64,000 bases of DNA from Syntrophales bacterium (GCA_963668175.1 OY764159.1:3072001-3136000); one strand, 5' to 3'. Shown: positions 20,501 through 39,093, counted from the first letter of the stretch. Program-made: numbers and translations. The notes: generated by a model not told the origin, from the sequence alone.

Positions 20501-20745
20501 CCCTTGATTTCCCAGAGGAGCTGCTCCATGGGCACCGTCACGCGCTCCTCCACCTCCCGGGGCGTCGCCCCCGGATAGGCGACGAAGACGTCGATCATGG
20601 GGACGACGATCTGGGGTTCTTCTTCGCGGGGGGTGACGACAACGGCGAAGACGCCGAGAAGAACGGCGGCGATGACGAGAAGGGGCGTCAGCTTCGACCG
20701 GATGAAGGCGCCGGCTATTTTTCCCGAAATCCCGACTCCCTTCAT
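17515..20745 (-). CDS. RND efflux transporter permease (AcrB/CzcA family)
   Basis: 1076 aa; [35 protein letters not shown]. Confidence 0.95.
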
Positions 20746-21880: not shown

Positions 21881-23245
21881 TTATTTTTCTATCTTCAGAT
21901 CGGACAGGATCGTTCCGCTCTCGTAGCTCAACGCGGCCAGGGCGGTCCTGTAGGCGTTGTCCCGTTCGACGAGACCGGCCCTTGCCTGTTCCAGGCTGGC
22001 CTGGGCGCTCAGGAGATCCGCCAGGGGCGACAGGCCGTTTTCATAACGTATCTTGAGAAGCCGTCTGCCCTCTTCGGCGGTTTTCAAGGCTTCCCGCGAA
22101 AGCTCGATATTCTTCCGGGCCTCGTCGATGTTCAGGTGGGCTTCGTAGATCCGAAAAGAGATGCCCTTCCTCATGGCGGCAAGGAATTCGTCGGCCTGCG
22201 ACGCCAGGTGTTTCGCCTTCACCCGCTCGTACTCCCGCTTCGTCCCGTCGAAGAGGTCCCAGCGGAGGAAGGTCATGACCTGCCAGTTCCGTCCCTCGGA
22301 ACCGAAGGGCTGGTTGTGGTCGTTGAACTGGTAGCTCCCGCCGATGCCCAGGTAGGGGAAATAGCCCGCTTCGGCTAGCTGGATATTTTTCTTCGCGTTT
22401 TCACCCCGAAGCTCCGCGGCCTTGAGGTCTTGGCGCGATTCGGCCGCCTTGGCATAGTAGGACAGGTCCCTGAACGGCAATTCCAGAGTGCCGTCGACGA
22501 TATCGACGGGATCGTTCGTTGCGAGAATGAGCCCCAGGCCGCGCTTGGAGAGACTCACATTCTTGTCGGCCACGATCTTTCTCTGCCGGGTTTCCGTGAG
22601 GGCGGTGGAGGCGCGGAGCACATCGGCATACTGGCTGAGGCCGTTCTTATAGCGCACCTCCGTCACCCGCAGGTGCTCCCGGGCTTCCTCGACGCCTTCC
22701 TCCGCGGCCCGCGCATAGGCCTTCGCACTGACCACTGCCAGACTCGCCCTGACGACCTGGAAAGCCACCTCTTCCTTCTTGCGTTTCAGGTCCGCCTCGG
22801 AAGCCTCCGTCTCCGTCCGGGACATGTCGAGGCCGATAAAGGCCTTTCTGATGTAAAGGGGCTGCTCGACGACCAGGGAAGACTGGTAGTCGTTGATAGC
22901 ATCCGGCTGGTTCAGGAAGTCGGGATTGAAATCCTTCTGTTCGATCCTTGCCTGGTTGAGCCTGGCCATAAAGGCCCAGCCGGGGTTCGTCGTCCGCAGA
23001 TACCGTTCCTCGAAGGATACCTTGGGAAGGAGATAGCTCCGGGCAATGCCGATGTCCTTCTCTTTCGCCAGGGCGGCGTTTTTCTGGACGTTGATTTCAT
23101 GGCTGTCCTGCAGCGCCGCCCGGACGGCATCCGCCACCGTCATCCTTCGTTCGCCGTCGCCGGCGCAAACGGCCGCGGCCTGTAATAAAAGGAAGATAAG
23201 GACCGTTCCCGTTATTCTTCCATACCGGCACACGGATTTCCTCAT
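21881..23245 (-). CDS. TolC family outer-membrane channel
   Basis: Signal peptide, YLLPKVSF and YFPYLGI repeats, RYKNGL/RYENGL; start chosen at MRKSVC. Confidence 0.9.
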   Translation of the reverse strand: MRKSVCRYGRITGTVLIFLLLQAAAVCAGDGERRMTVADAVRAALQDSHEINVQKNAALAKEKDIGIARSYLLPKVSFEERYLRTTNPGWAFMARLNQARIEQKDFNPDFLNQPDAINDYQSSLVVEQPLYIRKAFIGLDMSRTETEASEADLKRKKEEVAFQVVRASLAVVSAKAYARAAEEGVEEAREHLRVTEVRYKNGLSQYADVLRASTALTETRQRKIVADKNVSLSKRGLGLILATNDPVDIVDGTLELPFRDLSYYAKAAESRQDLKAAELRGENAKKNIQLAEAGYFPYLGIGGSYQFNDHNQPFGSEGRNWQVMTFLRWDLFDGTKREYERVKAKHLASQADEFLAAMRKGISFRIYEAHLNIDEARKNIELSREALKTAEEGRRLLKIRYENGLSPLADLLSAQASLEQARAGLVERDNAYRTALAALSYESGTILSDLKIEK

Positions 23246-23268
23246 GAACGCACCCTCCATTCGTTTCG

Positions 23269-23463
23269 TCAGCATTTTCTCGCCACACCGAGTTTTTCCA
23301 GGATATTTTCCATCAGGCACCATTTCGTGAAAGCCGACTGAAGAAGATTGAGCCCGACAAAGGCCGTAAAAAAGAGCCAATACCGGTGATGGAAATAACT
23401 CAGTGCGAGGGAGACCAGGATAAATGTCCCGGCGATGGCCCGAATCATCTCTTCCATCTTCAT
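23269..23463 (-). CDS. DUF2892 (YgaP-like) small membrane protein
   Basis: IRAIAG...FVGLNLLQSAFTKWCLM pattern. Confidence 0.85.
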   Translation of the reverse strand: MKMEEMIRAIAGTFILVSLALSYFHHRYWLFFTAFVGLNLLQSAFTKWCLMENILEKLGVARKC

Positions 23464-23872
23464 AGGTCTTTCCTCCTTTGCAGATGAGTCCTTCTCTGTG
23501 ATTCGTCCCGCCTGCGACACCGAACCTCCGCTTCATGAGGGCCGCGGACGATGCCCGTTCCAGGCTGAACCCCGTTTCCGCCCGATATAACGCCGTCAGT
23601 TATTTGCTATTCTACCATAATCATTTTCCGTCGGCAGTCAATAATTGCGAAAATAGAATTTGTATGTAAAGGATTGCCTCTCCCGGACGGTGCGACACGC
23701 CGGCGTCGGACTGAGTATGGTACGATTGCAGTTATTTCCGGAAAACGAGGAGTCCAAGCCTGTCGCCCGAATTTTATGAGCACGAAGATTTACCGGCACG
23801 GGCAACGCGGCTGACCTTGTCTTCCTGGCTCTTTCCGTTTCTTCTTGCGATCATCGGGACTTTGTGCCATCA

Positions 23873-23913: not shown

Positions 23914-24660
23914 ATGCTGAAACGATTCCTTGTCCTGGCCGTTCTTCTTTCTCTTGTTTTCGGCGTTCAGACGACGCCGGCCCAGGAAAAAATCCGTTGC
24001 GCCGTGGCCGCGAACTACATCCAGGCCTTCCAGGAAATTTCCGCCGCCTTCGAGGCGAAGACCGGCGTCAAGGTGGAGGGAACATTCTCGTCTTCAGGAA
24101 ATCTTTACAGCCAGATCGTGAACGGCGCCCCGTACGACCTCTTCCTGTCGGCCGACGAGGAGCGCCCCGCCCGCTTGCTGAAAGAAGGTTTTGCGGAGAG
24201 GCCCTTTGTCTACGCCCGGGGCCGCGTCGTCCTCTGGTCGGCAAAGAAGGTTTTTTGCACGAAATCCGGGTGGCAGGAAGCTCTCAGGGGAGCGGATGTC
24301 AAGAAGATCGCCCTGGCCAACCCGGTGACGGCTCCCTATGGCACCGCCGCCCAGGCGGCCATGCAGAAGACCGGCCTCTGGTCCTCTTTGAAGGATAAAT
24401 GCGTCCAGTCCCAGGATATCGCCCAGGCCTTCCAGTATGCCGCGACCCAGTCCGTGGACGCAGGCTTTTGCGCCCTCTCCTCCGCCGTCTCGCCGGAGGG
24501 ACGCAAAGGCTGTTACTACGCCGTGCCGGAGGCACCGGATATCGTCCAGTCCGCCTGCATCGTCTCCCGGACGAAGAACCGCGCCGCCGCCGAGCGCTTC
24601 GCCGCCTTCCTCCAATCCTCCGAGGCAGCCGCCGTCAAGGAAAAGCTGGGTTACAAGTGA
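23914..24660 (+). CDS. modA: Molybdate ABC transporter substrate-binding protein
   Basis: Signal peptide; AVAAN, FSSSGNLYSQIVNGAPYDLFLSAD, IALANPVTAPYG. Confidence 0.92.
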   Translation: MLKRFLVLAVLLSLVFGVQTTPAQEKIRCAVAANYIQAFQEISAAFEAKTGVKVEGTFSSSGNLYSQIVNGAPYDLFLSADEERPARLLKEGFAERPFVYARGRVVLWSAKKVFCTKSGWQEALRGADVKKIALANPVTAPYGTAAQAAMQKTGLWSSLKDKCVQSQDIAQAFQYAATQSVDAGFCALSSAVSPEGRKGCYYAVPEAPDIVQSACIVSRTKNRAAAERFAAFLQSSEAAAVKEKLGYK

Positions 24661-24757: not shown

Positions 24758-25408
24758 TCACTTCTTCAAACGTTTGCGCGACACCGCCGCACCCAGGAGA
24801 CCAGCCCCGAGAAGCAGCATCGTCGCCGGTTCGGGAACGGCCGTCGGCGGTCCCTGCAGCGTAATATTCTCGGACAGGAGCGCACCGGCTTTCCTGCCGT
24901 CCGCATTGACATAGCGTGCCTTGATGCTCGCCTGGTCCGCACCGATCAGAAGCGCACCGTTGTCCACGGTAATATCGAAGACGAATTCATAGTCGGTCCC
25001 GACACCGTTGCCCGTGGTCACGGCAACGCCTTTGCCGCCGTTGGCCAGACCGTAAGCACAGTCGAAGCCGCTGCCGCTTCCCGAACAGCCGCCGGCGTTC
25101 AGGCCGCCCGCCTCGACTCCCCAGTTGGCGACGCCGCCCGGAGCACTTACGACAACGAAGTTCTCCACCTGAGAGGCGACCTTGACCGCGATGTCGGCAA
25201 GGTACAGTCCGCCGCCGTTATACGCATTCGTATCGATATCGAGCGTAATCCGGTAAGTTTCGTGCAGAGGATCGGAATCCGCAAGGGCATATCCGTTGTA
25301 AGAGAGCGTATAAGCCGCCCCCTGGAAAGTAATCGTCTCGGCACAAGCCACGCCCGATAAAAGCAGGAATGCCAGTCCTGCCAGAAGCGTCCACCTCTTT
25401 TTCAACAT
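24758..25408 (-). CDS. PEP-CTERM sorting-domain protein
   Basis: Signal peptide; C-terminal VPEPATMLLLGAGLLGAAVSRKRLKK. Confidence 0.92.
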   Translation of the reverse strand: MLKKRWTLLAGLAFLLLSGVACAETITFQGAAYTLSYNGYALADSDPLHETYRITLDIDTNAYNGGGLYLADIAVKVASQVENFVVVSAPGGVANWGVEAGGLNAGGCSGSGSGFDCAYGLANGGKGVAVTTGNGVGTDYEFVFDITVDNGALLIGADQASIKARYVNADGRKAGALLSENITLQGPPTAVPEPATMLLLGAGLLGAAVSRKRLKK

Positions 25409-25471
25409 AATGCATCTCCTCATGGTTATATTCGGTCCGTCCACCCCGCAAACCAGACAGGCTAAAAACCA

Positions 25472-25487
25472 AGCAATTCATAGGCCA
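25472..25487 (-). promoter_or_regulatory. sigma54 promoter of the PEP-CTERM gene
   Basis: Minus strand TGGCCT-ATGAA-TTGCT, GG-N10-GC spacing; PEP-CTERM genes are typically sigma54-driven. Confidence 0.65.
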
Positions 25488-25859
25488 TAATTTCAATATC
25501 CCGATATTCCGTACTATTTTATAAAACGGATTTTTTCCTGTGTAACATATTTGTATAATTCACCAGCACAGTCAAGCAACTCAAGAGACAATATAAGCAT
25601 TATACTCATATATCGTCCTGCTGCGAGTATGACGTCAAAAATAATATATGTAGCTTCTTCGCCTCGCCTGATGCGGTTTTGCGATACTCGTCTATGCGTA
25701 TAACAAATTACCTGACATGCCGCCGGAAACCGCAGGCAAAATTTTCCGTGTCTCCTCGGTCCTTGAAAGAAACCCGCCGAAACCCGGCACCATCGACGGA
25801 CGCCGCATCTTCGGCACGATGTCGGCGCAACGCTTCCTTCTTCCCTGACACGTTGCCGC

Positions 25860-25905
25860 TTGACAGGCCTTCCCATAGGTGCTATTATTTTTTAATTAGT
25901 AACAC
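25860..25905 (+). promoter_or_regulatory. sigma70 promoter overlapped by a NikR-like operator
   Basis: TTGACA(25860)-N17-TATTAT; GTGCTA-N15-TAACAC inverted repeat at 25879-25905 covers the -10. Confidence 0.55.
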
Positions 25906-26080
25906 GACAACGCTATCTGCTTAAGCTTATGTCAAATCTAGTGCATTATTATTTCTATTGTTATTAATGTGTTATTAATATTTATCATATACGCATCGTA
26001 GCACGATTGCAATTTTAATATCTAGGAAAGGCATCGAATCGCCTGCCGTAGCCTGTGGCCGGCAGCGTTCTCTTCGATCC

Positions 26081-26758
26081 ATGAGCCCACAGCGCCTCCA
26101 TATCGCCGCTTCGTTAACCCTTCACGCCGTCTTCTTTTCCCTGATTATTCTCCTGCCGGAGACGCGCCATCAGACTATGCCCGGCATGATCCATATCCAT
26201 CTGATCGAAGCCTCTTCTTCCGCCGGTGTCAAGGATACGGCGCCTCGTCAGGCCACGCGGGCCGTGCCGCCGGTTCCCGCAAAACAGGAAGCCGCCGTTG
26301 CGCCGCCCTTGCCTGAAAATGAAATAACAGCCGCCATAAAGTCAGGGGAAACGGCAGACGCCGGCAACGCACAAAATCGACTTCCCGCGGGCAATTCCAT
26401 GGTCATCGCCGCAAAGCATACCGGCTGGGGAGATCAGGCAGGCACGGCTCCGGCGGCAAGGCATGCCGTTATCGAAACATCCTTCGGCGCAACGGGTGCA
26501 CCGGCGTTCATGCACCGGGAGTCGCCGGTTTATCCTCCGGCTGCGAGAAGGCTGGGAAAGGAAGGGAGGGTCGTCTTAAGGCTCACGATCGACAGCGAAG
26601 GCCGCCTGCAGGCCGTCGAGATCGTCGAAGACGCCGGTTACGGTTTTTCCGAGGCCGCCGTGGAGGCCGTCCGGAAATCGACGTTTGCCCCGGCCCTTCA
26701 GAACGGACAGCGGATAGCGGCCCGGGCGGTTCTGCCCGTTCGTTTCCGTCTTCAGTGA
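26081..26758 (+). CDS. tonB: Energy transducer TonB
   Basis: N-terminal TM with SLTLH; C-terminal PVYPPAARRLGKEGRVVL...VRFRLQ. Confidence 0.9.
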   Translation: MSPQRLHIAASLTLHAVFFSLIILLPETRHQTMPGMIHIHLIEASSSAGVKDTAPRQATRAVPPVPAKQEAAVAPPLPENEITAAIKSGETADAGNAQNRLPAGNSMVIAAKHTGWGDQAGTAPAARHAVIETSFGATGAPAFMHRESPVYPPAARRLGKEGRVVLRLTIDSEGRLQAVEIVEDAGYGFSEAAVEAVRKSTFAPALQNGQRIAARAVLPVRFRLQ

Positions 26759-26950
26759 AGCGGAGGATGACAAACCGCAAGGAAGGGGGGTAACACGGGC
26801 AGCAGGCAGGAAAAGGATAAGGTCGGAACAGGGAATCCTCGGCAAAGGCGTTTCCCTGCTCCGGAAGGGCAATGTTGTCAACAACATCACCTCTTGAAAG
26901 ACATCGTATCAGAAAAGGAGGTGAAAGGCAAAAAGGAAAGGAGAAAGCCG

Positions 26951-29167
26951 ATGTTCGCACGATGGGGTTGGATATTGATGCTGTTTATGATGGCTTCCCC
27001 GGCATTCGGGGTTGAGAGGGCGGCGGCCAAGACGGAGGGGAAGGACGGAACCAGGATGGAAGAAATCGTCGTCACGGCGACCAGGACGGAAAAGGAACTG
27101 GACACCGCTCCCGGCAGCGTGAACGTCGTGACGAAAAAGGACATTGAAAAGAGGGGAATGCAGACGCCGGACAGCGCCCTGAATACGGTCCCCGGCGTCT
27201 TCAATAGGCGGCAGTCGCTCGCGGATACGCTGTCGAGCATCTCGCTCCACGGCATCCCCGAGCAGAAACGGACCCTGATCATGAAGGACGGCATTGGGAT
27301 CAACAACGCCTACGACGGCGGCGTGGTCTATACGGGCCTGCCCCTGGAAGACGTGGAACGGATCGAGGTCGTGCAGGGCCCGTTTTCCAGCTTGTACGGC
27401 GGTTACGCCATGGGAGGCGTCGTGAATATCGTCACCCGCATGCCGGAAAAGCGGGAAATCGTCGCCAAGGCCGGTTACGGTTCAAGCTGGCACCGGGGGG
27501 AAGCGCCGGACGATCTCCAGAGATACTATGTCTCCTACGGCGACAGGTTCATGGACAAGTGGAGCATCCTGGCAAGCTACGGCTACCGCGGCACCAACGG
27601 CTATTCGAAGGATATCAACGTCCAGTCGTCGAAGCCCACTGCCGGCATCGCCGGCTGGTCTTACACCGGCACGACCGCCGGCGACACCCGTTACGCCATC
27701 GGCGACAAGGGAGACAACGCCTTCTGGGACGACAACCTGAACCTCAAGACACGCTTCGACTTCTCGAAGGCGACGAAGCTGGACCTCTCCTTCATGCGGA
27801 CCCGCTACAAATACAGCTACGACGAACCCCATACGAACCTCAGGAACGCCGCCGGCAATCCCGTCTACGCCTACGGCACGGTTCGGGAGAACAGTTTTCT
27901 CAGCGGCTTCGGCGGCAAGGAGATCAACCGCTACAACGTCGGCTACGAAACGGAATTCGGCCCGGTGAAGACAAAGTTCACCGCCGGTCTGAACGACGAG
28001 GAGAAATCGTGGTACACGACGCCCAACAGCAGCGCCCCCTACGCCACGATCAACGACGGCCCCGGCAAGGTCTCCACAAGCCCCAACCAGAATTACAATG
28101 CCGACCTCCAGTTTACCTTCCCCGTCTTCGGCCGGCAGGTCGTCACGGTGGGAGGGTCCGTGAAGACAAACACCGTCAAGGTCGAGGAGTTCAGCATCAA
28201 CAACTGGAAGAACGAGGACTCCCGGACCGCCCTCACCTACAATGCCGGAGGCAAGGACCGGACCTACGCGGTCTTCCTCCAGGACGAGATCATGATCCTC
28301 CAGAACCTCACCGCCTATGCCGGGTTCCGGGAGGATTTCTGGGAGACCTACGACGGCTACGCCAACCAGTCGGACTCGCCCGGCTACCCGAAGGCGTACG
28401 ATTCGAGAAGCGCGTCGTCGTTCAGTCCGAAGCTGTCCCTCGTCTACAAGCCCCTGGAGAAGACGACCCTTCGAGCATCGGCGGGCCAGGCCTTCCGGGC
28501 GCCGTCCGTCTACGAGCTTTACCGGACTTGGACCTCGACCACAGGCGTCACCTACAACGGCAACCCGGACCTGCAGCCGGAAACGGTGCGGTCGTGGGAC
28601 GCCGCCGTGTCGCAGGGCCTCTGGAAAGGGGCGAAGGTCGGCGCCACTTACTTCGAAAACTATCTCTATGACCTGATTTACCGGAAGACGACATCGGCCA
28701 CGCAATCGGACTACATCAACGCCGGCCGGGCCAAGAGCAAGGGCGTCGTCCTGGAAGCCGAACAACGCTTCGACAAATGGCTCAAGCTTTTTGCCAACTA
28801 CACCTATACGGACGCACGGATCAACGAGAATACGGCGAGCCCCGCCTCGGAGGGAAAAAGGATGACCTTCATGCCCGACCATCTGCTGAACGTCGGAGCG
28901 GAATTCGAAGCGGGCCCCGTATCGGCGTCCGTCACGGGCCGGTACGTCGGCAAGCGTTACGGCAACGACACGAACAGCGACCAGGTGAATGGCGTCTACA
29001 CATCCTACGACCCCTTCTTCACCGCCGATGCCAAGGTGTCCTGCAAGATCATGAAGTTCGCCACGGTATCCGTCTCCATGGAAAACATCCTGGGCGAATC
29101 CCATTTCGAATATTACCAGGCCCCCGGCAGGTCGGTCTTCGCCGAAGTGGAATGGAGGTATTTTTGA
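26951..29167 (+). CDS. TonB-dependent outer-membrane receptor
   Basis: Signal peptide, TonB box EEIVVTATR, ERIEVVQGPFSSLYG plug motif, GNPDLQPE, C-terminal Phe. Confidence 0.93.
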   Translation: MFARWGWILMLFMMASPAFGVERAAAKTEGKDGTRMEEIVVTATRTEKELDTAPGSVNVVTKKDIEKRGMQTPDSALNTVPGVFNRRQSLADTLSSISLHGIPEQKRTLIMKDGIGINNAYDGGVVYTGLPLEDVERIEVVQGPFSSLYGGYAMGGVVNIVTRMPEKREIVAKAGYGSSWHRGEAPDDLQRYYVSYGDRFMDKWSILASYGYRGTNGYSKDINVQSSKPTAGIAGWSYTGTTAGDTRYAIGDKGDNAFWDDNLNLKTRFDFSKATKLDLSFMRTRYKYSYDEPHTNLRNAAGNPVYAYGTVRENSFLSGFGGKEINRYNVGYETEFGPVKTKFTAGLNDEEKSWYTTPNSSAPYATINDGPGKVSTSPNQNYNADLQFTFPVFGRQVVTVGGSVKTNTVKVEEFSINNWKNEDSRTALTYNAGGKDRTYAVFLQDEIMILQNLTAYAGFREDFWETYDGYANQSDSPGYPKAYDSRSASSFSPKLSLVYKPLEKTTLRASAGQAFRAPSVYELYRTWTSTTGVTYNGNPDLQPETVRSWDAAVSQGLWKGAKVGATYFENYLYDLIYRKTTSATQSDYINAGRAKSKGVVLEAEQRFDKWLKLFANYTYTDARINENTASPASEGKRMTFMPDHLLNVGAEFEAGPVSASVTGRYVGKRYGNDTNSDQVNGVYTSYDPFFTADAKVSCKIMKFATVSVSMENILGESHFEYYQAPGRSVFAEVEWRYF

Positions 29168-29214
29168 AGCCCGGAGATGTTTGGAATGATCCATTCAGCA
29201 GGAAGGTGCTTGAC

Positions 29215-30579
29215 ATGATTATCTTCGATTCCTTCAGCTTTACCTATCCCGGCATGGACACGCCTGCCTTGCGGGACATCAGTCTCCGGATTGAAGAAGG
29301 TGAGATGGTGTTGTTGCGCGGCCCTTCGGGATCGGGAAAATCGACCCTGCTTTACGCTTTAAACGGCTTGATTCCCCATGTGTTTGCCGGAAAGACCCAC
29401 GGAGACGTCCTGGTGAACGGGCTGAACCCGTCCGGCGTACCTGTACGGGAGATGGCGCGCGTTGTGGGAACGGTCTTCCAGAATCCGGAAAGCCAGATAT
29501 TTATGATGCGCGTGGCAGACGACGTCGCCTTCGGCTGCGAAAACCTGCTTATGCCTCGTGAAGAGATTATCAGCCGCCGCGACATGGCCCTCCGCGCCAT
29601 GGACCTGTGGCATCTGCGGCATCGGGAAACAGCCAGGCTTTCCGGAGGACAGAAACAGCGCCTGGCTGTCAGTTCGATTTATGCCATGGGGCCGGGCGTT
29701 TTCCTGTTCGACGAACCCTCCACAGACCTGGACGACGCGGGAAGGCTGGACTTTAAAAGGATTATCGCAAGACTGAAGGAAGAAAAGAAGACCGTCATCC
29801 TGGCGGAGCATCAGTACGAAGATTTCCTGCCACTCATGGACCGCGTGATAACCTTCGCCGGAGGCGCTATCGCCGGTGAAAGTGACCTCAACGGCGCCTC
29901 CGCCGACGCATCGGGAAGAACCGCAACTTACAGTGGCCTTGCGATATCCTTGCAGGGTATCCATTGCGGCTATGAGCCGGGCAAATCCGTACTCTGCGAC
30001 ATCCATTTGACCGTCGGGCGGGGCGAATTCGTGGCGCTCTGCGGCGCCAACGGGTCCGGCAAGACGACGATCCTGAAAGTCATGGGGGGACTGCTCAGGC
30101 CCAACAAGGGGACAATGACGATTCTTGATGTCCGCCGACCAACCGTCGATGCCCTGGTGGGACGCGTGGGCTTTCTCTTCCAGAATCCCGACGAGCAACT
30201 CTTCTCCCGCACGGTCGCGGAAGAAATTGCCTTCGGACCTTCCCAACTGGGAAAGAGGGCTGACGTGGAGCGCTATCTGGAAATCGGCGGACTGAAACAT
30301 CTCAGACACCGCCATCCGCAAACGTTGTCGCGCGGACAGAGGCAAATCCTGGCGGCGTTATCCGTCATGGCGATGGAGCCGGACCTGTTGCTCCTCGACG
30401 AGCCGACCACGGGCCTCGACGGCGAAAGCTGGAAACGTCTTTTATCGCTTCTCCGCAATTACGCCGACACCGGGAAAACGGTCGTCTTCTCGACGCATAA
30501 CAAAACAGCGGCAGCAGCAGCGCTGCGCAGGATAACGATGCACGAAGGGAGAATCATAGGCGATGAAGTATCTCGATAA
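29215..30579 (+). CDS. ECF transporter ATPase with duplicated ABC domains
   Basis: Two Walker A motifs (GPSGSGKST, GANGSGKTT), two FQNP Q-loops, LSGGQKQR / LSRGQRQ. Confidence 0.9.
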   Translation: MIIFDSFSFTYPGMDTPALRDISLRIEEGEMVLLRGPSGSGKSTLLYALNGLIPHVFAGKTHGDVLVNGLNPSGVPVREMARVVGTVFQNPESQIFMMRVADDVAFGCENLLMPREEIISRRDMALRAMDLWHLRHRETARLSGGQKQRLAVSSIYAMGPGVFLFDEPSTDLDDAGRLDFKRIIARLKEEKKTVILAEHQYEDFLPLMDRVITFAGGAIAGESDLNGASADASGRTATYSGLAISLQGIHCGYEPGKSVLCDIHLTVGRGEFVALCGANGSGKTTILKVMGGLLRPNKGTMTILDVRRPTVDALVGRVGFLFQNPDEQLFSRTVAEEIAFGPSQLGKRADVERYLEIGGLKHLRHRHPQTLSRGQRQILAALSVMAMEPDLLLLDEPTTGLDGESWKRLLSLLRNYADTGKTVVFSTHNKTAAAAALRRITMHEGRIIGDEVSR

Positions 30580-31354
30580 CGACACCTTCATTCACCGACT
30601 GGACCCGAGGACCAAGATCGTCCTGGGCCTTCTGGGGGCCGTGTCTCTCGTCACGCTGAAGACGCCGCTGAGCCTTGCGCTCCTTTTCCTGTGCGTTTTG
30701 GTCTTTTTCGCCGTTGTCCGCCCGCCCCGCAAAACGATATGGACCACAGCTATGATTATGGCCACGGCACTCTGTTTCACCATGATATCTCAAGGATTCT
30801 TTTACGGGCTCCATCCCCGGACCGCAATCCTGACGCTGGTGCCGCCGGACGCAGGGATCGCCGGCCGCATTACGGGAGGCATCGTTCTGTATCGGGAAGG
30901 CCTGGTCTACGGGGCGCTTCAGAGTCTCAGGCTCTTTTCCGCCATGCTTTTGAGCTCCATTATCGTCATGTCCACCTACCCTTCCGATCTTCTGCTCGGG
31001 ATGGAAGAACTCGGCGTTCCGGAAAAAATCGGATTTGTCGTCGCCGTCAGCATCCGCTTTCTCCCGACCCTCATCGAGGAGGCGGGACGCATCCTTCTGG
31101 CTCAGAAACTCAGGGGTGTTCATGCAAAAGGTGTCCGGGGCGGCTTCAGGGCCTTCCGCCATTTATTGCCGCCGCTTGTCATCGACAGCCTGAGGAATGC
31201 CCGCCGAACTGCCATCGCCGCTGAAATCCGCGCTTTTACGGGCAAGAGGACCAAGGTCACGGCGTTGAAGTTCACGCGAAACGACTGGCTGTTTCTCGCT
31301 TTTTCCATCGCCGGCATATTGATATTGATCTTCGGTCAGGAATTACAGTCATGA
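30563..31354 (+). CDS. ECF transporter transmembrane T component (CbiQ/EcfT)
   Basis: HRLDPRTK, SIRFLPTL..E...I..AQKLRG, second conserved Arg in EIRAF. Confidence 0.9.
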   Translation: MKYLDNDTFIHRLDPRTKIVLGLLGAVSLVTLKTPLSLALLFLCVLVFFAVVRPPRKTIWTTAMIMATALCFTMISQGFFYGLHPRTAILTLVPPDAGIAGRITGGIVLYREGLVYGALQSLRLFSAMLLSSIIVMSTYPSDLLLGMEELGVPEKIGFVVAVSIRFLPTLIEEAGRILLAQKLRGVHAKGVRGGFRAFRHLLPPLVIDSLRNARRTAIAAEIRAFTGKRTKVTALKFTRNDWLFLAFSIAGILILIFGQELQS

Positions 31355-31971
31355 ATCTCTACATCGGCTCCGTCATCTTCATCGCCCTTCTGGGGGCCGC
31401 CGCGTTCCATCTCATGAAGACGCGCAAGGCGATTCCTGCCTTCAGCATCCAGGACCTGGTCATTGCTGCGCTTTTTTGCAGCCTCCTTTATATAGCCATT
31501 CTGCCGTTCAAATTCGGCCTGAGCCGCATACCCTTCGTCCAGTCCTTTTTCTTTTCCATACCGTACACGGCCGTCCTGTTCATAGGCATCCGTCTCATTC
31601 CCCGGCCGGGAACCGCCACGCTCATCATCTGCGGCCATACCCTCCTGTCCCAGACGATTTCCAGCGGCATCAATCCGCTCTGGTGGCCCTACGCTCTCCT
31701 GCCGAGCTGCATCCTGGAACTCTATTTCCTCGCGACGGGGAATTATCTGGAAACTGTGGGCAATGCCCTGGGGGCCGGCTTCCTGCGCGGCTTGACCGTT
31801 TACATCTATTTCTATTGCTTTTCCGCCCCCTTCATCTGGCACCAGTTTTATGCGCCCTGGTACATCGCCGTCCAGACGGTGCAGGGTACAGCAGGTTCCA
31901 TGATAGGGGCCCTGCTCGGCGTGTATCTGGGCAAACCGATCATCAGCGCCTCCCGTTACGGGGGAATCTAA
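31351..31971 (+). CDS. Probable ECF S component (MptD-like) membrane protein
   Basis: Highly hydrophobic ~200 aa, IPRPGTATL loop, directly after ECF A and T genes. Confidence 0.7.
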   Translation: MNLYIGSVIFIALLGAAAFHLMKTRKAIPAFSIQDLVIAALFCSLLYIAILPFKFGLSRIPFVQSFFFSIPYTAVLFIGIRLIPRPGTATLIICGHTLLSQTISSGINPLWWPYALLPSCILELYFLATGNYLETVGNALGAGFLRGLTVYIYFYCFSAPFIWHQFYAPWYIAVQTVQGTAGSMIGALLGVYLGKPIISASRYGGI

Positions 31972-31984
31972 GGAAGGATACGTC

Positions 31985-32722
31985 ATGGCATTCTACAAAG
32001 TCACGTACAACGAGCATCACGGTTTTGCCACTGTTCACAATTACGGCTGCACGTTCCGCTGTCCCACTTGCAGCTATAAGCTTCGCAGCGGCCCCGACGG
32101 AAAGCCCGGCCGGGCTCATCCCAGACCCGGCCTGTTTCTGCGGACAGCGGAAATCAAAGAAACCCTTCGTGCCCTGCCCATCAGGAACCTCTATTTCATG
32201 GGCGGAGAACCCACGGTCGCGAAGGATTTGCCCGAACTGCTGCGCTTCGCCAAGGAAGACCTCGGAATCAGGACGAAACTTGGCCATACCAACGGCAACG
32301 GCATCCCCCTCGCCCATCTGGACGGGGCTAACGTCGGTCTCAAGGCGTGGGACGAGGAACTTCACAAGACCCTGACCGGCCGGGCGAAGGACTTTATCTT
32401 TGATAACGTGGCCGCTGCATACGAAACGGGAATCGAACTCAAGATCAACATCGTTTATATTCCGGGGCTTGTGGATATCGAAGAGATCGAGGGCGTCGCC
32501 TCCTGGATAGCCTCCCTTGACCGCGACATACCCTTTCATATCATGGGTTATATCCCCGTTCCCGGACAGCCCTACGAGCAGCCGACAGCGGAACAGATGG
32601 CGAAGGCCGAACTTCGCTCCGGTCTGTATCTCCGGGATGTCGGGAGTTCCAGGCTTTCGCCGGGACAGGCCCTCGACTTGCCGGACAGGGACAGCCGTTT
32701 TGCCGTTACCCGGGTCTTATAA
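31985..32722 (+). CDS. Radical SAM protein (short, activating-enzyme-like fold)
   Basis: GCTFRCPTC (CxxxCxxC), FMGGEPT, HTNG, VGLKA. Confidence 0.88.
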   Translation: MAFYKVTYNEHHGFATVHNYGCTFRCPTCSYKLRSGPDGKPGRAHPRPGLFLRTAEIKETLRALPIRNLYFMGGEPTVAKDLPELLRFAKEDLGIRTKLGHTNGNGIPLAHLDGANVGLKAWDEELHKTLTGRAKDFIFDNVAAAYETGIELKINIVYIPGLVDIEEIEGVASWIASLDRDIPFHIMGYIPVPGQPYEQPTAEQMAKAELRSGLYLRDVGSSRLSPGQALDLPDRDSRFAVTRVL

Positions 32723-32727
32723 CCCAT

Positions 32728-32808
32728 GCCGAATATCTCGCCACACTCGGGGCGGACTATTACGGCATCGACGACCTGAAAGCCGATCATCTGACGGACA
32801 TCGTCCGG
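32728..32808 (+). pseudogene. Remnant resembling the C-terminus of a ChlD/BchD-type chelatase VWA subunit
   Basis: Translates as AEYLATLGADYYGIDDLKADHLTDIVR with no start codon or RBS of its own. Confidence 0.5.
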
Positions 32809-32891
32809 GCCAGGATAACGGACGCCGACGCCATGCTGGTCTGGAGCGGAAGCGGCTCCGTTTGGTCTCTGTCGATAGAAGGAACGATGCC

Positions 32892-33731
32892 TCACCGGGA
32901 GTAAACGTGCCCCGCCAGTTCCTCCATGCCGGCAACGACCCGGGGACCGACACGGTACAGGGACTCGCTGACCGGGTAGACCCTTCCCTTCTTGACGGCG
33001 TCCAGCATGGACAGCTTTTTCAGCATGCCCTGCGCGGAGCCGCTCGTCATATAGCCTGTCCCGATGAAGATGACGTCGGGGTCGAGGCGAATGACCTCCT
33101 CGATGGAGAATTTAGGATACTGGACGGATGACCTGCCCGCAACATTCCGCAGGCCGAGGAGGCCGAACGCCTCGTCGATCAACGTTCCCGGCCCGGCCAC
33201 GACCAGGGGCTCGGGGTGAATGACGAACAGGACTCTGGTCTTGCCTGTCCTTTTGGCCGCCCGGTTTTTGGATGTCTGCGCGAATTGTGCGACACCTTTC
33301 TCTATCGCCCCGGCCCGCCTTTCGGCGGTCTCGGCCACATCCAGCGCTCTCCCGAGGTCCCGCACGGCGGAAGGCAGCTCCGAGAGCCGCCGCGCCCCGA
33401 AGACATACGTCCTGATGCCGAGCTTGTTCAGTCTCTCCCGGATATGGCCGGGATTCTTCTCCTTCGTCATGATCACCAGGTCGGGATGGACGGCGACGAT
33501 GGCTTCAAGAGACGGGCTGTCGTAGCCGCCGATCCTGGGCTTGGTTCTGGCACGGGGCGGCTCGTCGCAGTATTCCGTCACACCGACGATACGACTTTCC
33601 ATTCCCAAATCGTAAAGGATTTCCGTAACGCTGGGCGCAAGGGAGACAATCCTCTCCGGCGGCGCGGCCGGGGAGGGAGAAGCAAGAAAAAGACCGATAA
33701 CGGCAAGGATAAGACCCTGGATGAATTTCAT
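32892..33731 (-). CDS. btuF: Cobalamin ABC transporter substrate-binding protein
   Basis: Signal peptide; RIVSLAPSVTEILYDLG, VGVTEYCD, YPKFSIEEVIRLDPDVI; context. Confidence 0.85.
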   Translation of the reverse strand: MKFIQGLILAVIGLFLASPSPAAPPERIVSLAPSVTEILYDLGMESRIVGVTEYCDEPPRARTKPRIGGYDSPSLEAIVAVHPDLVIMTKEKNPGHIRERLNKLGIRTYVFGARRLSELPSAVRDLGRALDVAETAERRAGAIEKGVAQFAQTSKNRAAKRTGKTRVLFVIHPEPLVVAGPGTLIDEAFGLLGLRNVAGRSSVQYPKFSIEEVIRLDPDVIFIGTGYMTSGSAQGMLKKLSMLDAVKKGRVYPVSESLYRVGPRVVAGMEELAGHVYSR

Positions 33732-33841
33732 ATCGATTATGCCATGTTCTGCCTTGAGCTAGACGTTCGGGACGTCCCTGTCAAGCAAAAAGAATGAAAA
33801 AACGATTGACAGGCCGTCGAAATGCACATATGAAAGCGTCA

Positions 33842-33986
33842 GGATGGATGTGTGGAAGTAGGGTGAAACGCCCTCGCTGCCCCGCAGCCGTAACGGGAAC
33901 GAAAGCCCATGATGTCACTGCCGCGAGCCAATCGCGGTGGGAAGGCGGGCAAGTAGGCCGCCCGGAGCCGGAAGACCTGTCCATCT
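33842..33986 (+). ncRNA. Cobalamin riboswitch
   Basis: GGAA..GGGTGAAA..CCC...CTGCCCCGCAGCCGTAA...CACTG...GGGAAGG...GAGCCGGAAGACCTG; closing helix GATGGA/TCCATC; upstream of btuC. Confidence 0.9.
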
Positions 33987-34010
33987 ATAAGTCCTCGAGG
34001 GAGGAAAAAG

Positions 34011-35063
34011 ATGGCACGTTTCATTTCTGGGAACTCATTTTTCCATTCAAGTGTCACCCCGAAGAAGGTATTCGGCCTAAGCGCCCTTTTCCTTCTGATC
34101 TTCATTATCGTGGCGTGCGTATCGCTCTTCGTCGGATCGAGCGGCGCCGGGATTTCCCTGCTCATCGACGCCTTCTCCGGCCGCTGGACGCACGCCTGCG
34201 AGAGCCTTGCCGATTCCGAAAAGACCATTCTGCTATCCATACGGCTGCCGCGCATCCTGTTTGCAGGGATCGTCGGCGGAGCCCTTTCCGTCGCCGGCGT
34301 CGTCTTTCAGGCCCTCCTGAGGAACCCCCTCGCCGATCCTTACATCCTCGGCGTCTACGGCGGCGCCGCAGCCGGGGCCGTCACGGGAATCATGCTGGGC
34401 GCCGGCCTGTGGCCCTTCGGCGTTCCGGGCCTGGCCTTTCTCGGGGCCGTCCTGACCATCGTCTTCCTCTTCGCCTTCGCGAACCGCGGCACGGCGATGC
34501 CTTCCCATACGCTTCTTCTGACCGGCGTCGTCACGAACGCCTTCTTTTCCGCCGTCGTCATGTTCCTCATTACAATCAGCAAAAGCACGGAAATACACGG
34601 CATCATGTTCTGGCTCATGGGAGACCTGAGCATCGCCGACACCGGGGACATCCTCTTCGCAGGGGCGCTTCTCGCCGCAGGCTTCGTTATCATCTATTGC
34701 TTCGCCCGCCCCCTCAACCTGATCGTCACGGGCGAAGAGACCGCCATGCAGCTTGGCGTCCCCGTGGAACGGACCAAAGCGGCCCTTCTCATCGTTTCGT
34801 CCCTCATGACGGCCGCCGCCGTCTCCGTGAGCGGCATCATCGGCTTCGTCGGCCTGATCATCCCGCACCTGATGCGGATGATCGTCGGTCCGGACCACCG
34901 GTTGTTGCTGCCGGCAGCGGTTCTCTTCGGCGCCGCTTTTCTCGTGGCCGCCGATACGATCGCCAGGACGGCGATGGCCCCGGCCGAACTGCCGGTGGGC
35001 GTCGTCACGGCGCTGTGCGGAGCGCCATACTTCATCTATCTCTTACGGAAAAAGGGGTTCTGA
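34011..35063 (+). CDS. btuC: Cobalamin/iron-chelate ABC permease (FecCD family)
   Basis: IRLPRIL, QALLRNPLADPYILG, GEETAMQLGV, GFVGLIIPH, ELPVGVVTAL.GAPYF. Confidence 0.9.
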   Translation: MARFISGNSFFHSSVTPKKVFGLSALFLLIFIIVACVSLFVGSSGAGISLLIDAFSGRWTHACESLADSEKTILLSIRLPRILFAGIVGGALSVAGVVFQALLRNPLADPYILGVYGGAAAGAVTGIMLGAGLWPFGVPGLAFLGAVLTIVFLFAFANRGTAMPSHTLLLTGVVTNAFFSAVVMFLITISKSTEIHGIMFWLMGDLSIADTGDILFAGALLAAGFVIIYCFARPLNLIVTGEETAMQLGVPVERTKAALLIVSSLMTAAAVSVSGIIGFVGLIIPHLMRMIVGPDHRLLLPAAVLFGAAFLVAADTIARTAMAPAELPVGVVTALCGAPYFIYLLRKKGF

Positions 35064-35065
35064 CG

Positions 35066-35896
35066 ATGGCCGTGCTCACCGTGGAAAACGTCTCTTTCCG
35101 ATACCGAAACGACTGGGTCCTCCATGACGTCTCTTTTACCGTCAATCCCGGGGAATTCATCGGCGTCCTGGGTCCCAACGGATCGGGCAAGACCACGCTG
35201 CTCAAGGTCATGGACGGCCTCCTCGAACCGCAGGAAGGTACGGTCATGATCGACGGGCGGCCGATCCGCAAAATGAGCCGGAACGAAGCGGCCCGAATCA
35301 TCGCCGTGGTGCCCCAGGACGCTGAGACGGTTTTTTCCTTCACGGTGGAGGAATTGGTTCTCATGGGCCGGTCGCCCCACCTGGGCATGATGAGCTTCGA
35401 GGGCAGCCGGGATTACCGCGTTGTCGCGCAGGCCCTGGAACTGACGGGTCTTTCCGGACTCGCCGGCCGCCGCCTCAATGCCCTGAGCGGCGGAGAACGC
35501 CAGCGGGTTCTGATCGCCAGAGCCCTGGCGCAGGAGCCCAAGATCCTTCTCCTCGACGAACCGACGGCCTTCCTGGACATCCGCCATCAGGTCGAGATCC
35601 TCGACCTGGCCGGAAACCTGAATAGGACGTCCGGCGTGTCCGTCGTCGCCATTACACACGACATCAATCTGGCGGCCTCCTACTGCAGCCGGATCGCCAT
35701 GCTGAAAGAGGGTTCCGTCCATTGCCTGGGGGCCCCCGAGGTCGTCATCACCGAGGAGCATATCCGCAGCGTTTACGGCATAGACGTTATCGTCGACAAA
35801 CACCCGGTGGCCGCGAGTCCGCGGGTCACCACGATTCGCTCATATCCTTCGGAGCAAGGAAGCCGGTTTGAGTCCGGCGCTGCCCCGCAACTGTAA
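35066..35896 (+). CDS. btuD: Cobalamin/iron-chelate ABC ATPase
   Basis: GPNGSGKTT, LSGGERQRVLIARALAQEP, LLDEPT, THDINLA. Confidence 0.9.
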   Translation: MAVLTVENVSFRYRNDWVLHDVSFTVNPGEFIGVLGPNGSGKTTLLKVMDGLLEPQEGTVMIDGRPIRKMSRNEAARIIAVVPQDAETVFSFTVEELVLMGRSPHLGMMSFEGSRDYRVVAQALELTGLSGLAGRRLNALSGGERQRVLIARALAQEPKILLLDEPTAFLDIRHQVEILDLAGNLNRTSGVSVVAITHDINLAASYCSRIAMLKEGSVHCLGAPEVVITEEHIRSVYGIDVIVDKHPVAASPRVTTIRSYPSEQGSRFESGAAPQL

Positions 35897-35996
35897 GCGG
35901 AACGAAATCCGCAACGGCCACTGGCCGCCGCCAAGGCGGCCGGGAAGGCGCGGAGAGTAGGCGAAAAGCCGCGAGCCAGGAAACTTGTCCGGAGGA
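35845..35996 (+). ncRNA. Cobalamin riboswitch overlapping the btuD 3' end
   Basis: GGAAGCCGGTTTGAGTCCGGC.CTGCCCCGCAACTGTAA...GCCACTGG...CCGGGAAGG...GAGCCAGGAAACTTG; closing helix TCCTTCGGA/TCCGGAGGA. Confidence 0.9.
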
Positions 35997-36036
35997 AAAA
36001 ATAACTTATTTCCCGCGGGGGAAAGGAGAAAAACCT

Positions 36037-38130
36037 ATGAAGAAGAAAGCAGTAAGTTGTCTGGCCGTCGTCGTTGTATTCATGACGGCCGCCACCGGAA
36101 AAGGACTGGCCGCCGCCAACGACAAACAGGAAGAACCTGTGAGACTCGAGGAGATCGTCGTCACGGCGACCAAAACGGCGGAAAAGCGCAGCGATGTACC
36201 CAACGCCGTCGTCATCAAGGACAGGGAAGACATCCGCACTTCGGGGGCGAAATCCATCGGGGAATTGCTGGCCAATGAACCAGGCATCGACTGGCAGTCC
36301 TACGGCAATTACGGGGGAGCGCCGCAGGAAATCCATATCCGCGGCATGCAGGGCAAGGCGACGCAGGTCTTCGTGAACGGCGTCAACGTCAATTCGCCGT
36401 CTTTAGGTACGGCGGACGTGGGCAAATTCTCCATGGACAACATCGAGCGGATCGAGGTCGTGAAGGGATCGGGTTCCCTCCTTTACGGCTCCGGCGCCAT
36501 GGGCGGCACCGTCAACATCATGACCAGGCGGCCCAGCAGGGACAAGATGGACTTACGGGTGGAAACGGGCTACGGCTCGCAGAATACTTACCGCGTATCG
36601 GCCGAGCAGGGCATGTTCGTCGTGGGCGATCTCGGCTACTACATTACCGGCGGCCGCCGGGAAACGGACGGTTACCGAGATAACAGCTTTCTGCGGCAGA
36701 ACGACGCCTCGCTCAGGGTGGTCCTCGAGAAAGGAGAAAAACTGGACGTCAGCCTCTACGGCAGCCTGATCGACCGCTCCTACGGGATGCCCGGCGTCAA
36801 GCCGCCCGCCGGCACGCGGGACTATTATCGCGGAGCCGTCAGGTTCTATGACAGCGACTCGGCAACGCTCCTGAACCACAGCGAAGACAAGGACGGACAG
36901 GCCGTCGCCGAGATCAAGGGCAGGCCGGTGTCATGGCTCGGCTACGATCTCAAGGGCTACAACACCAAAATGACCAACTACAACTACGAACGCTATGCCT
37001 CCGACGGGACGGGGGCCGAGAACTGGGTGACCAACCGGGTCCTGGGAACGGACGGCCATCTGGAGATCCGTCCCTTCGAGGGCGCCGGTCTCCTTCTCGG
37101 CGGGGAATATAAGGATTTCTCCTGGAAAAACGAAGCTATCAGCCTGAACAGCAGCGGCGAACCCAAAACCGGCATCAAGACCGAAACCGAGGCCCATCTG
37201 TTCAGCAGCGGGACATTCGGAGAAATTCAGTACAGGCCGTTTAAATATGTCAAGGGGCTCGTCGGCCTGCGCCACGAAGACCATTCGGCCTTCGGCTCGG
37301 AGAACCTGCCGCTCTTCGGCCTCGTCGTCAACCCGCTTCCCACGACGGCCCTGAAGTTCAATCACGGCAAGCATTTCGAGGCTCCCACGCCGAACGACCT
37401 CTACTGGCCGGCCGACCCCTATACCAAGGGCAACGCCAACCTGAAACCGGAGATCGGGTGGCACACGGATGTCACGGCGGAGCAATCGTTCATGGACAAC
37501 AAGGTGTTCCTGACGGCGTCGTACTTCCACTGGAACGTGGACAATAAAATCCAGTGGGAACCGGATTCCAACGCAGTCTGGAGCCCGATCAACCTGGCCG
37601 GCTACAAGGCGGACGGGATCGAGGCGGGGATGAAGACCGGGCCTTTCTACAATCTGACGCTCTCCCTGGCCTTCACGTACCTGAAAGCGGAAGAGGAGAA
37701 CCGTCAATATACCCGTCAGGATTACGGCCCGCCGGCGGATTTCCGGTACACCATGGTCACGCGGAAGGCGACCATGACGCCCGAACGCCTGTTCAAGGGG
37801 GACCTGACCTACAAGAGCGACTTCGGGCTGACCGCGTCGGCGACGGTAAGGTTCACCGGCGACCGCGTCATGTATAATACGGTTAGCACGGCCTACCCCG
37901 ACACGAGGACCGTCCTGTATACCCTCGATTCTTACTGGACGGTGGATATGAAGGTCCAGCAGCGCCTTTACAAGCACTGGATTCTCTCGCTCTCCGGAAG
38001 CAACCTCCTGGACGCGGCCTACGACACGCACCTGACGACCTTCACCGACCAGATCACCTCCAGGTCGACCATGAGCGGATATCCGGGCGCGGGGAGAACC
38101 GTTTTTTGCAGCATCGCCTATGAATATTAG
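36037..38130 (+). CDS. btuB: TonB-dependent cobalamin receptor
   Basis: TonB box EEIVVTATK, IERIEVVKGSGSLLYGSGAMGG, APTPNDLYWP, GNANLKPE; preceded by a cobalamin riboswitch. Confidence 0.85.
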   Translation: MKKKAVSCLAVVVVFMTAATGKGLAAANDKQEEPVRLEEIVVTATKTAEKRSDVPNAVVIKDREDIRTSGAKSIGELLANEPGIDWQSYGNYGGAPQEIHIRGMQGKATQVFVNGVNVNSPSLGTADVGKFSMDNIERIEVVKGSGSLLYGSGAMGGTVNIMTRRPSRDKMDLRVETGYGSQNTYRVSAEQGMFVVGDLGYYITGGRRETDGYRDNSFLRQNDASLRVVLEKGEKLDVSLYGSLIDRSYGMPGVKPPAGTRDYYRGAVRFYDSDSATLLNHSEDKDGQAVAEIKGRPVSWLGYDLKGYNTKMTNYNYERYASDGTGAENWVTNRVLGTDGHLEIRPFEGAGLLLGGEYKDFSWKNEAISLNSSGEPKTGIKTETEAHLFSSGTFGEIQYRPFKYVKGLVGLRHEDHSAFGSENLPLFGLVVNPLPTTALKFNHGKHFEAPTPNDLYWPADPYTKGNANLKPEIGWHTDVTAEQSFMDNKVFLTASYFHWNVDNKIQWEPDSNAVWSPINLAGYKADGIEAGMKTGPFYNLTLSLAFTYLKAEEENRQYTRQDYGPPADFRYTMVTRKATMTPERLFKGDLTYKSDFGLTASATVRFTGDRVMYNTVSTAYPDTRTVLYTLDSYWTVDMKVQQRLYKHWILSLSGSNLLDAAYDTHLTTFTDQITSRSTMSGYPGAGRTVFCSIAYEY

Positions 38131-38180
38131 ACAACGCTTCATGATAAGCGGGCATGAGTCAATGTTTTAAGGAACTGTTC

Positions 38181-39029: not shown

Positions 39030-39093
39030 TCCGTGCGGCCCGGCAACGCCATGCCGTTAAACGGCATTCCGGCGGGTCGGCCCGCCGCAGGGG

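Follow-up and report, generated by a model that had tools for sequence, protein, structure and literature searches.

A conserved radical SAM enzyme family encoded beside two alternative importers suggests a NikR-regulated route for uptake of chelated nickel

Six co-oriented genes in a 64,000-nucleotide (nt) stretch of the genome of a Syntrophales bacterium (GCA_963668175.1 OY764159.1:3072001-3136000) code for TonB, a TonB-dependent outer-membrane receptor (TBDR), the fused double ATPase (AA), T and S subunits of an energy-coupling factor (ECF) transporter, and a small radical S-adenosylmethionine (SAM) enzyme (rSAM). The window denotes this whole stretch, and coordinates are counted from its first letter. 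Judged by the names of homologs, the organism belongs to Syntrophales, close to Smithella. Nickel is required by hydrogenases, CO dehydrogenase/acetyl-CoA synthase and methyl-coenzyme M reductase, and it is scarcely available in sulfidic anoxic habitats. We propose that the six genes form an operon, probably repressed by NikR, for the high-affinity uptake of nickel carried on an organic ligand. Three parts of this proposal are inferred: that nickel represses the operon in this genome, that the substrate is a chelate, and which reaction the rSAM carries out and in which direction.

The first gene, tonB (26081-26758, on the plus strand like the five that follow), matches TonB_C of Pfam with 75 bits and TIGR01352 with 60 bits (cutoff 27.1). 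The receptor gene (26951-29167) lies in an open reading frame (ORF) open from 26894 and probably starts at the ATG at 26951, which is preceded by GGAG. Its product has the N-terminal plug (Plug, 82.2 bits) and 22-strand barrel (TonB_dep_Rec_b-barrel, 179.3 bits) domains of a TBDR. The fused double ECF ATPase, A-A' (29215-30579), contains two ABC_tran stretches and scores 336.5 bits against TIGR04520 (ECF_ATPase_1; cutoff 315). It is followed by the T subunit, or transmembrane scaffold (30563-31354; CbiQ PF02361, 113 bits, cutoff 25), by a 206-residue protein with seven predicted helices and a predicted S fold (31351-31971), and by the 245-residue rSAM (31985-32722; Radical_SAM, 60 bits). The six genes are separated, in order, by +192, +47, -17, -4 and +13 nt. 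Both the tight packing and the six identities had been put forward in the initial annotation, and both hold, five of the identities by Pfam or NCBIfam matches and that of the S component by a structure model. The TBDR-AA-T-S-rSAM order was seen again in related Syntrophales loci, which argues that the arrangement does not result from chance.

The rSAM belongs to an uncharacterised, highly conserved family. Its CX3CX2C (C22/C26/C29) and GGEP motifs are invariant across 14 aligned sequences, and the 13 others, from several phyla and archaea, are 58-69% identical to the window protein. Pfam matches are restricted to PF04055 and a weak one to PF19238. No specific NCBIfam family was assigned and none of the curated families fits, with scores far below the cutoffs for the pyruvate formate-lyase (PFL) activase family PFLA (24.5 bits vs 231.75), PFLE_PFLC (26.1 vs 174.35) and the YjjW activase (44.6 vs 250.2). 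A model of the protein (predicted local distance difference test [pLDDT] score of 87.2) resembles minimal rSAM cores, first PFL activase 3c8f (template modeling [TM] score 0.68, same length), then viperin, MoaA and NifB; the best PDB match of its sequence profile is MoaA (E 2e-10). An exhaustive profile search returned 47 cluster representatives at E<=1e-30 and 175 at E<=1e-10. Among 15 representatives chosen from 150 listed, a named family was found for only one, the most distant (P0317), which belongs to the AmmeMemoRadiSam rSAM family, itself of unknown function. The names of the ESM Atlas clusters are the generic 'radical SAM' and 'PFL activase family' only, and some homologs carry the source name 'pyruvate formate lyase activating enzyme'. 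No fused form of 430 to 2000 residues was found at E<=1e-20, which is weak evidence. Elsewhere in the window, a radical SAM ORF (49233-50606) is followed by a gene for a fused Memo-AMMECR1 protein (50619-52157), making up an AmmeMemoRadiSam-type pair.

We surveyed the genomic contexts of rSAM relatives by scanning one genome per species and keeping the best 80 of 148 relatives; the ORFs of these loci were labelled by comparison with the window proteins and with proteins from the loci themselves. The rSAM gene is linked to importer genes in 70 of the 80 loci, in at least six phyla and with two importer types. The ECF type (17 loci), with S, T and AA directly upstream of the rSAM gene, occurs in Syntrophales and other 'Deltaproteobacteria', and a receptor homolog was found upstream in 13 of them, the other four having less than 3.1 kb of upstream sequence. 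In the second type (53 loci) the rSAM gene lies within an ATP-binding cassette (ABC) operon coding for a Peripla_BP_2 binding protein, a FecCD permease and an ATPase, usually in the order binding protein-rSAM-permease-ATPase. Its carriers are Planctomycetota, Verrucomicrobiota and Lentisphaerota, including Victivallis vadensis DSM 14823, together with an Anaerolineaceae bin, a Solirubrobacteraceae bin, a Bathyarchaeota genome and a Thermoplasmata bin. A gene for a prepilin-type N_methyl/DUF1559 protein precedes that of the binding protein in 45 of the 53 ABC loci, and in 16, among the Planctomycetota and Verrucomicrobiota versions, one for a DUF3344/PEP-CTERM protein does so as well. One verrucomicrobial locus (L074) joins a homolog of the window receptor (402 bits) to the ABC version. 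No transporter adjoins the rSAM gene in the remaining 10 loci, eight of which are from Methanomassiliicoccales and two of which (L003 and L044) are cut off just upstream. The rSAM is the constant element; what varies is the importer at the inner membrane, of which there are two alternatives, and the component at the outer layer, again with two. The initial annotation had tied the enzyme to the import of large chelates, and the finding of an ECF or a type II ABC importer next to the rSAM gene in 70 of 80 loci agrees with this; the outcome named there as contrary, homologous rSAM genes standing apart from ECF/TBDR genes, is not what the survey returned. The CobN/ChlID chelatases that had been expected near such genes did not turn up: of 16 ORFs with 900 codons or more, 15 were checked by Pfam and none is of the CobN type; the 16th, antisense to a histidine kinase gene, was left out of the check.

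Two minor observations were made on these contexts. In a Verrucomicrobiae locus (L056, 209-1798), the binding-protein and rSAM frames run on as a single ORF of 530 codons, through either a fusion or a missing stop codon. In the window, a PEP-CTERM protein gene (24758-25444, minus strand) is divergent from the operon, and its product shows no similarity beyond the sorting motif to the DUF3344/PEP-CTERM proteins of the Planctomycetota loci.

In a quick IQ-TREE phylogeny of the rSAM with an arbitrary root, the ECF-linked sequences (19 rows: the window, the 17 ECF-type loci and the cut-off L003) form one clade with an SH-aLRT support of 98, nested among the ABC-linked sequences. The simplest reading of this nesting is a single swap of a type II ABC importer for an ECF module. 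Archaeal sequences are interleaved among the others. As most other lineages pair the same rSAM with a binding-protein/FecCD/ATPase importer, the ECF module appears to be a lineage-specific replacement at the inner-membrane step. If so, the ECF module and the type II ABC importer would offer a clear-cut example of transporters that stand in for one another in the same task.

The link to nickel comes from regulatory genes and operator-like sequences. Using NikR of a Syntrophales-type locus (L001) as a query, tblastn identified nikR homologs in 28 of the 80 loci. All 11 candidates tested by Pfam are above the cutoff for NikR_C, nine of them also matching RHH_1, and so is the product of the L001 gene, which has RHH_1 (35 bits), NikR_C (111 bits) and an HVHLDHHNCLE stretch. 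In L001, L005 and L008 the gene order is His-rich protein, nikR, tonB, exbB, exbD, TBDR, AA, T, S, rSAM. The nikR gene likewise lies 5' of tonB in L002, L004 and L010, directly 3' of the rSAM gene in L009, L011 and L013, and before the first gene of ABC operons, e.g., in L053 and L079. Pairs of GTRNYAC half-sites show a sharp preference in spacing, with 16 pairs at a start-to-start distance of 20 and five at 21, in 18 of the 80 loci. Every other spacing between 8 and 40 yielded zero to four pairs, and 50 block shuffles averaged 2.0, never exceeding 5. A stricter palindrome, T[AG][TC]TAC-N13/14-GTA[AG][TC]A, occurs 30 times in 27 loci (shuffle mean 1.6, maximum 5); all but one of the 30 sites precede the rSAM gene, in most cases standing directly 5' of the operon's first gene. 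The shared palindrome matches GTGTTAC-N13/14-GTAACAC, reportedly the NikR box of earlier comparative work. Loose clusters of half-sites were not enriched (26 observed vs 15-38 in shuffles, and 1 vs 0-2). The observation that nikR is present in 28 of 80 loci and that a NikR-type palindrome is enriched before the operons supports the nickel link predicted in the initial annotation.

Operator-like half-site arrays were also found 50-90 nt before the stand-alone rSAM genes of two Methanomassiliicoccaceae loci, L066 and L072. In L072 (5692-7946), and also in L066, the operator-preceded rSAM gene is followed by co-directional genes for a class I methyltransferase and a CobW/HypB-type GTPase, and these genes may together form a compact nickel-regulated operon that lacks an importer. 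As accessory genes of the Syntrophales version, L001 encodes, 5' of nikR, a 95-residue protein composed mostly of His, Glu and Lys (2356-2643) and, 3' of the rSAM gene, a 179-residue secreted protein with His-rich stretches (10911-11450); neither matches a Pfam family, and both are missing from the window. In the Smithella-like L002, group II intron RNA domains (2307-2912; RF01999, 110.6 bits, and RF00029, 52.5 bits) lie just upstream of nikR-tonB.

In the window, a scan of 25400-34100 for sigma-70-like promoters gave five matches (shuffle mean 3.1). The best, TTGACA-17-TATTAT with TG before the -10 box, lies on the plus strand at 25860-25888 and agrees with the consensus at 11 of 12 positions, a consensus match only. 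The palindrome GTGCTAT-N13-GTAACAC (25879-25905, two mismatches to the operator sequence) overlaps this -10 box, the position expected of a repressor. It is the only match to GTGTTAC-N13-GTAACAC with up to three mismatches in the entire 64 kb and is situated 176 nt before the tonB ATG. The 635-nt intergenic region 5' of tonB (25445-26080) is AT rich and contains a tandem GTTATTAAT repeat, further NikR-like half-sites (GTGTTAT near 25971 and GTAGCAC near 26001) and, directly before the tonB ATG, a possible hairpin. Another half-site, GTAACAC, is found between tonB and the receptor gene (26789-26795).

In phmmer comparisons, the receptor scores 786-1027 bits with the full-length receptors that occupy the equivalent position in 12 Syntrophales-type loci; with two receptors truncated at a contig end the scores are 219-282 bits. 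In NCBIfam it comes closest to the receptor families for heme (199.5 bits) and B12 (173.1 bits), without reaching either cutoff. The ECF module has the components of a dedicated (group I type) transporter, namely two A-type ATPase domains, a CbiQ-family T subunit and an S-fold protein encoded alongside.

The S protein matches no Pfam or NCBIfam family, and its sequence profile retrieved nothing from the PDB at E<=10. A model built from a 14-sequence alignment has seven helices and a mean pLDDT of 83.6, and its top PDB match is an ECF S component, 5edl (TM 0.63, E 8e-4), followed by chains of RibU, ThiT and FolT. The initial annotation's description of this membrane protein as S-like is thus borne out at the level of predicted structure. 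As 5edl is presumably YkoE, we refer to its fold as YkoE-like. We found 63 homologs, the named ones of which are from Syntrophales and other 'Deltaproteobacteria'; some are labelled 'thiamin/hydroxymethylpyrimidine transport system permease' by their sources. Of the 44 residues invariant in the alignment, 13 are aromatic, one is His and none is Cys, a composition more in keeping with an organic ligand than with a bare metal ion. Docking of T and S was predicted with an ipSAE interface score of 0.57, as against 0.00 for the best of three controls; solved ECF complexes exist, so that the likeness was possibly memorised. The mark applied is passed by 116 of 157 solved complexes and by two of 215 mismatched pairs, and scores of at most 0.60 belong to only 18 of the 157 solved complexes and to both passing mismatches. 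With at least 92% contact agreement between runs and a partner pLDDT of at least 71, we graded the prediction as weak support. We accept 31351-31971 as coding for the S component of a new sequence family.

A regulation that points to nickel, combined with a receptor and type II ABC parts of the heme, siderophore and corrinoid kinds, suggests a nickel-starvation importer for nickel on an organic ligand too large for porins. In the proposed mechanism, the TonB-energised receptor would move the chelate over the outer membrane, and the dedicated ECF transporter, with its A-A' ATPase, T subunit and new S component of YkoE-like fold, would move it over the inner membrane. The cytoplasmic rSAM would then act on the imported ligand, most likely by an irreversible cleavage or rearrangement that releases nickel. 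Destruction of the ligand so as to liberate the metal is the guess that assumes least for the rSAM step; it is favored by analogy with heme uptake operons, in which a radical SAM enzyme degrades heme (PMC10035031).

Several observations weigh against this proposal. The NikR-like site that the initial annotation had placed upstream of the operon stands as one palindrome at the -10 box of the best promoter match, and its count alone is not above chance, since shuffled sequences gave a mean of 0.41 matches and 36 of 100 shuffles gave at least one. No nikR gene was detected in the window by tblastn at E<1e-4. Nor was nikR found in 52 of the 80 loci, many of which are short contigs, others having full flanks. 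The first scan relied on a presumed NikR consensus; the spacing test is independent of it. The receptor, binding proteins, permeases and ATPases find their highest scores with heme, B12 and siderophore families, in no case above cutoff, and the transporters themselves say nothing of nickel. The structures nearest to the rSAM are generic cores, and the eight Methanomassiliicoccales loci have the rSAM gene without an adjacent importer. Lastly, the operon lies beside corrinoid salvage loci in the window, L001, L006, L008 and L074, and a corrinoid-related role is possible.

An unlikely alternative is that the rSAM works in the opposite direction, as the sole biosynthetic enzyme that makes a small nickelophore from a common metabolite, with export encoded at an unlinked site and recovery of the nickel-loaded form by the TBDR and the ECF or ABC importer, in the manner of operons in which the synthesis and the uptake of a metallophore go together. 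The NikR and operator evidence applies to it equally, and the operator-preceded, stand-alone rSAM genes of Methanomassiliicoccales are compatible with a synthase whose importer is encoded elsewhere. The methyltransferase and CobW-type GTPase genes that come next, in the same direction, in L072 also speak for it. However, clustering of the neighbours revealed no exporter or second biosynthetic gene recurrent in five or more loci, and most of the 53 ABC-type loci have the rSAM gene inserted between those of the binding protein and the permease, an arrangement more typical of an import-coupled step. We also know of no precedent for a one-enzyme metallophore pathway, which counts against this alternative.

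A second alternative dispenses with nickel: a corrinoid, heme or other iron- or cobalt-chelate would be imported and the cofactor remodelled by the rSAM, the nearby nikR regulating something else. The best argument for it is the neighbourhood, shared by two phyla. The window region 32892-39858, which adjoins the operon, is a complete corrinoid salvage locus. It comprises a Peripla_BP_2/BtuF-like binding-protein gene (32892-33731, minus strand) lying 170 nt past the rSAM stop codon, a cobalamin riboswitch (33829-33998, 68.5 bits) of the btuCD unit, btuC (34011-35063) and btuD, then a second cobalamin riboswitch (35833-36007, 94.4 bits) that overlaps the 3' end of btuD and belongs to the receptor-cbiZ unit, a second, BtuB-like receptor gene (36037-38130), cbiZ (38154-39029) and a second tonB (39094-39858). 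The same salvage locus is found 3' of the rSAM operon in L001, L006 and L008, and in L074 the rSAM operon is divergent from a riboswitch-controlled btu operon. The claim in the initial annotation that a periplasmic binding protein is lacking therefore applies to the operon itself, in which there is none, and not to its surroundings, given the BtuF-like gene 170 bases downstream. The heme and B12 scores of the receptor favor this alternative as well, as do the best matches of the ABC-type permease to BtuC and of the ATPase to a heme ATPase, although all of these family scores are below cutoff.

The regulatory signals tell against import of a corrinoid or heme. The neighbouring btu operons carry a cobalamin riboswitch, whereas none precedes the rSAM operons: 5' of the window tonB we found none at the gathering threshold or at E<=10, and there was none before the rSAM operons of 19 further loci scanned. 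A scan of the window with an E. coli Fur box consensus gave no match with up to three mismatches, which is a weak test. Moreover, the adjacency of nikR and the operator right before the operons are hard to explain otherwise. Taken together, we regard a role without nickel as quite unlikely.

As to the identity of the nickel ligand, one candidate is a nickel tetrapyrrole released by methanogens, coenzyme F430 or another. Anaerobes of methanogenic habitats would pirate it via the TBDR, or via pseudopilin-type surface proteins, and the ECF or BtuCD-like importer, and the rSAM would break the macrocycle to free the nickel. Methanomassiliicoccales, which make F430 themselves, would keep only the operator-preceded rSAM gene and recycle their own cofactor when nickel is short. 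Such a system would be the nickel counterpart of ChuW-type anaerobic heme degradation. Importers of the heme and B12 kinds and the aromatic-rich core of the S component are compatible with F430, as is the finding that the named sources are anaerobic lineages, with several records from bog or animal-gut samples. So is the distribution of importers, in a small sample: all eight full-length loci without one are from this methanogen order, and the other archaeal loci, L050 and L057, keep theirs. No F430 biosynthesis gene was present among the neighbours checked by Pfam in five of the eight importer-less Methanomassiliicoccales loci. We consider this particular ligand rather improbable.

The possibility that the rSAM gene lies beside transport genes by chance, its product being an activase of a glycyl radical enzyme or some other housekeeping enzyme, was rejected as hardly credible: PFL activase is its closest structural match and some homologs bear that name, yet despite the similar fold the activase family scores are far below cutoff, no glycyl radical enzyme gene recurs among the neighbour clusters, and the importer linkage in 70 of 80 loci spans at least six phyla and two importer types.

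We compared the proposed nickel-chelate system with known ones. Nickel uptake in Helicobacter involves the TonB-dependent FrpB4/FecA3 and the FecCD-type NiuBDE importer under NikR control. This layout, of a TBDR and a type II FecCD/Peripla_BP_2 ABC importer with NikR, resembles that of the 53 ABC-type loci; no rSAM is known to take part in Helicobacter, and where Helicobacter has the ABC importer the window has an ECF module. Opine-type metallophore systems (staphylopine, pseudopaline, Cnt) rely on nicotianamine-synthase-like and opine dehydrogenase enzymes and have no rSAM. They share with the window a metal-regulated operon, a dedicated importer, a TBDR in Gram-negative bacteria and a nickel, zinc or cobalt chelate, but neither of these enzymes was found among the recurrent neighbours in the rSAM loci. 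The YkoEDC-type transporter for thiamine/hydroxymethylpyrimidine in B. subtilis resembles the window module by the proximity of the S model to 5edl and by its dedicated A-A'/T pair; in contrast, there is no family match at the sequence level, the genetic context is one of NikR, TBDR and rSAM rather than thiamine genes, and no thiamine pyrophosphate (TPP) riboswitch was found in the window scan.

ChuW and HutW have a HemN-like class C architecture of about 450 residues with a C-terminal HemN domain, about twice the length of the window rSAM. The initial annotation had pointed to ChuW/HutW as known examples; the window rSAM is not of that kind, being a bare core of 245 residues with no HemN-type match and with no HemN/ChuW model among its 14 NCBIfam matches. 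The regulation also points to nickel, not iron. Heme degradation by ChuW/HutW is nevertheless the closest analogy for how the system may work: a radical SAM enzyme is encoded with TonB-dependent chelate uptake and metal is freed from an imported macrocycle under anoxic conditions, HutW being described as a radical SAM methyltransferase (PMC10035031). The NikMNQO/CbiMNQO transporters, for the former of which NikR-dependent regulation has been predicted (PMC2667541), have in common with the window the ECF architecture, the CbiQ-type T subunit and CbiO-type ATPases. They differ from it in that the window operon has no CbiM/NikM or N subunit (no CbiM-like ORF was found in 26081-32722 by comparison with Pfam), an S protein of YkoE-like fold, a fused doublet ATPase, and an added receptor and rSAM. 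The substrate is probably a chelate rather than the free ion transported by NikMNQO/CbiMNQO.

A 2009 survey of nickel, cobalt and B12 utilisation lists the importers NikABCDE, Nik/CbiMNQO, NiCoT, UreH and HupE, none with a radical SAM step, and its text mentions neither TonB nor FecCD (PMC2667541). No prior description of the system was apparent in the open full-text literature, including passages of a 2024 review of metal homeostasis (PMC11672702) and of PMC3087415, subscription papers and supplements being outside this scope. If the proposal is correct, a NikR-linked chelate importer with an obligatory rSAM partner extends across Syntrophales, Planctomycetota, Verrucomicrobiota, Lentisphaerota, Chloroflexota and several archaeal groups, and represents an undescribed route of nickel acquisition for anaerobes. 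It would also mean that a nickel-carrying molecule circulates in anaerobic communities and is acted upon by a new radical SAM reaction, and it would assign a function to an rSAM family that lacks annotation, as well as to a new family of ECF S components.

The rest of the window was inspected around the operon. Downstream of the rSAM gene, an open frame at 32725-32901 had been taken for the scar of a chelatase subunit. This is not sustained: a Pfam search of the frame gave nothing at E<=1, tblastx found no counterpart beyond the window below E 0.005, and blastn was uninformative. Upstream of the operon, at 7663-12470 and 23914-24660, are genes for a twin-arginine translocation (TAT)-signal molybdopterin oxidoreductase, a 4Fe-4S subunit, a NarJ-like chaperone and a LysR-type regulator, and the molybdate-binding gene modA. 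The minus strand carries a heavy-metal-type efflux set made up of an AcrB-family pump (17515-20745), an HlyD-type adaptor (20742-21854) and a TolC-like channel (21881-23536), and beside it, on the plus strand, lies a gene for a Metal_resist/LTXXQ periplasmic protein (16814-17443).

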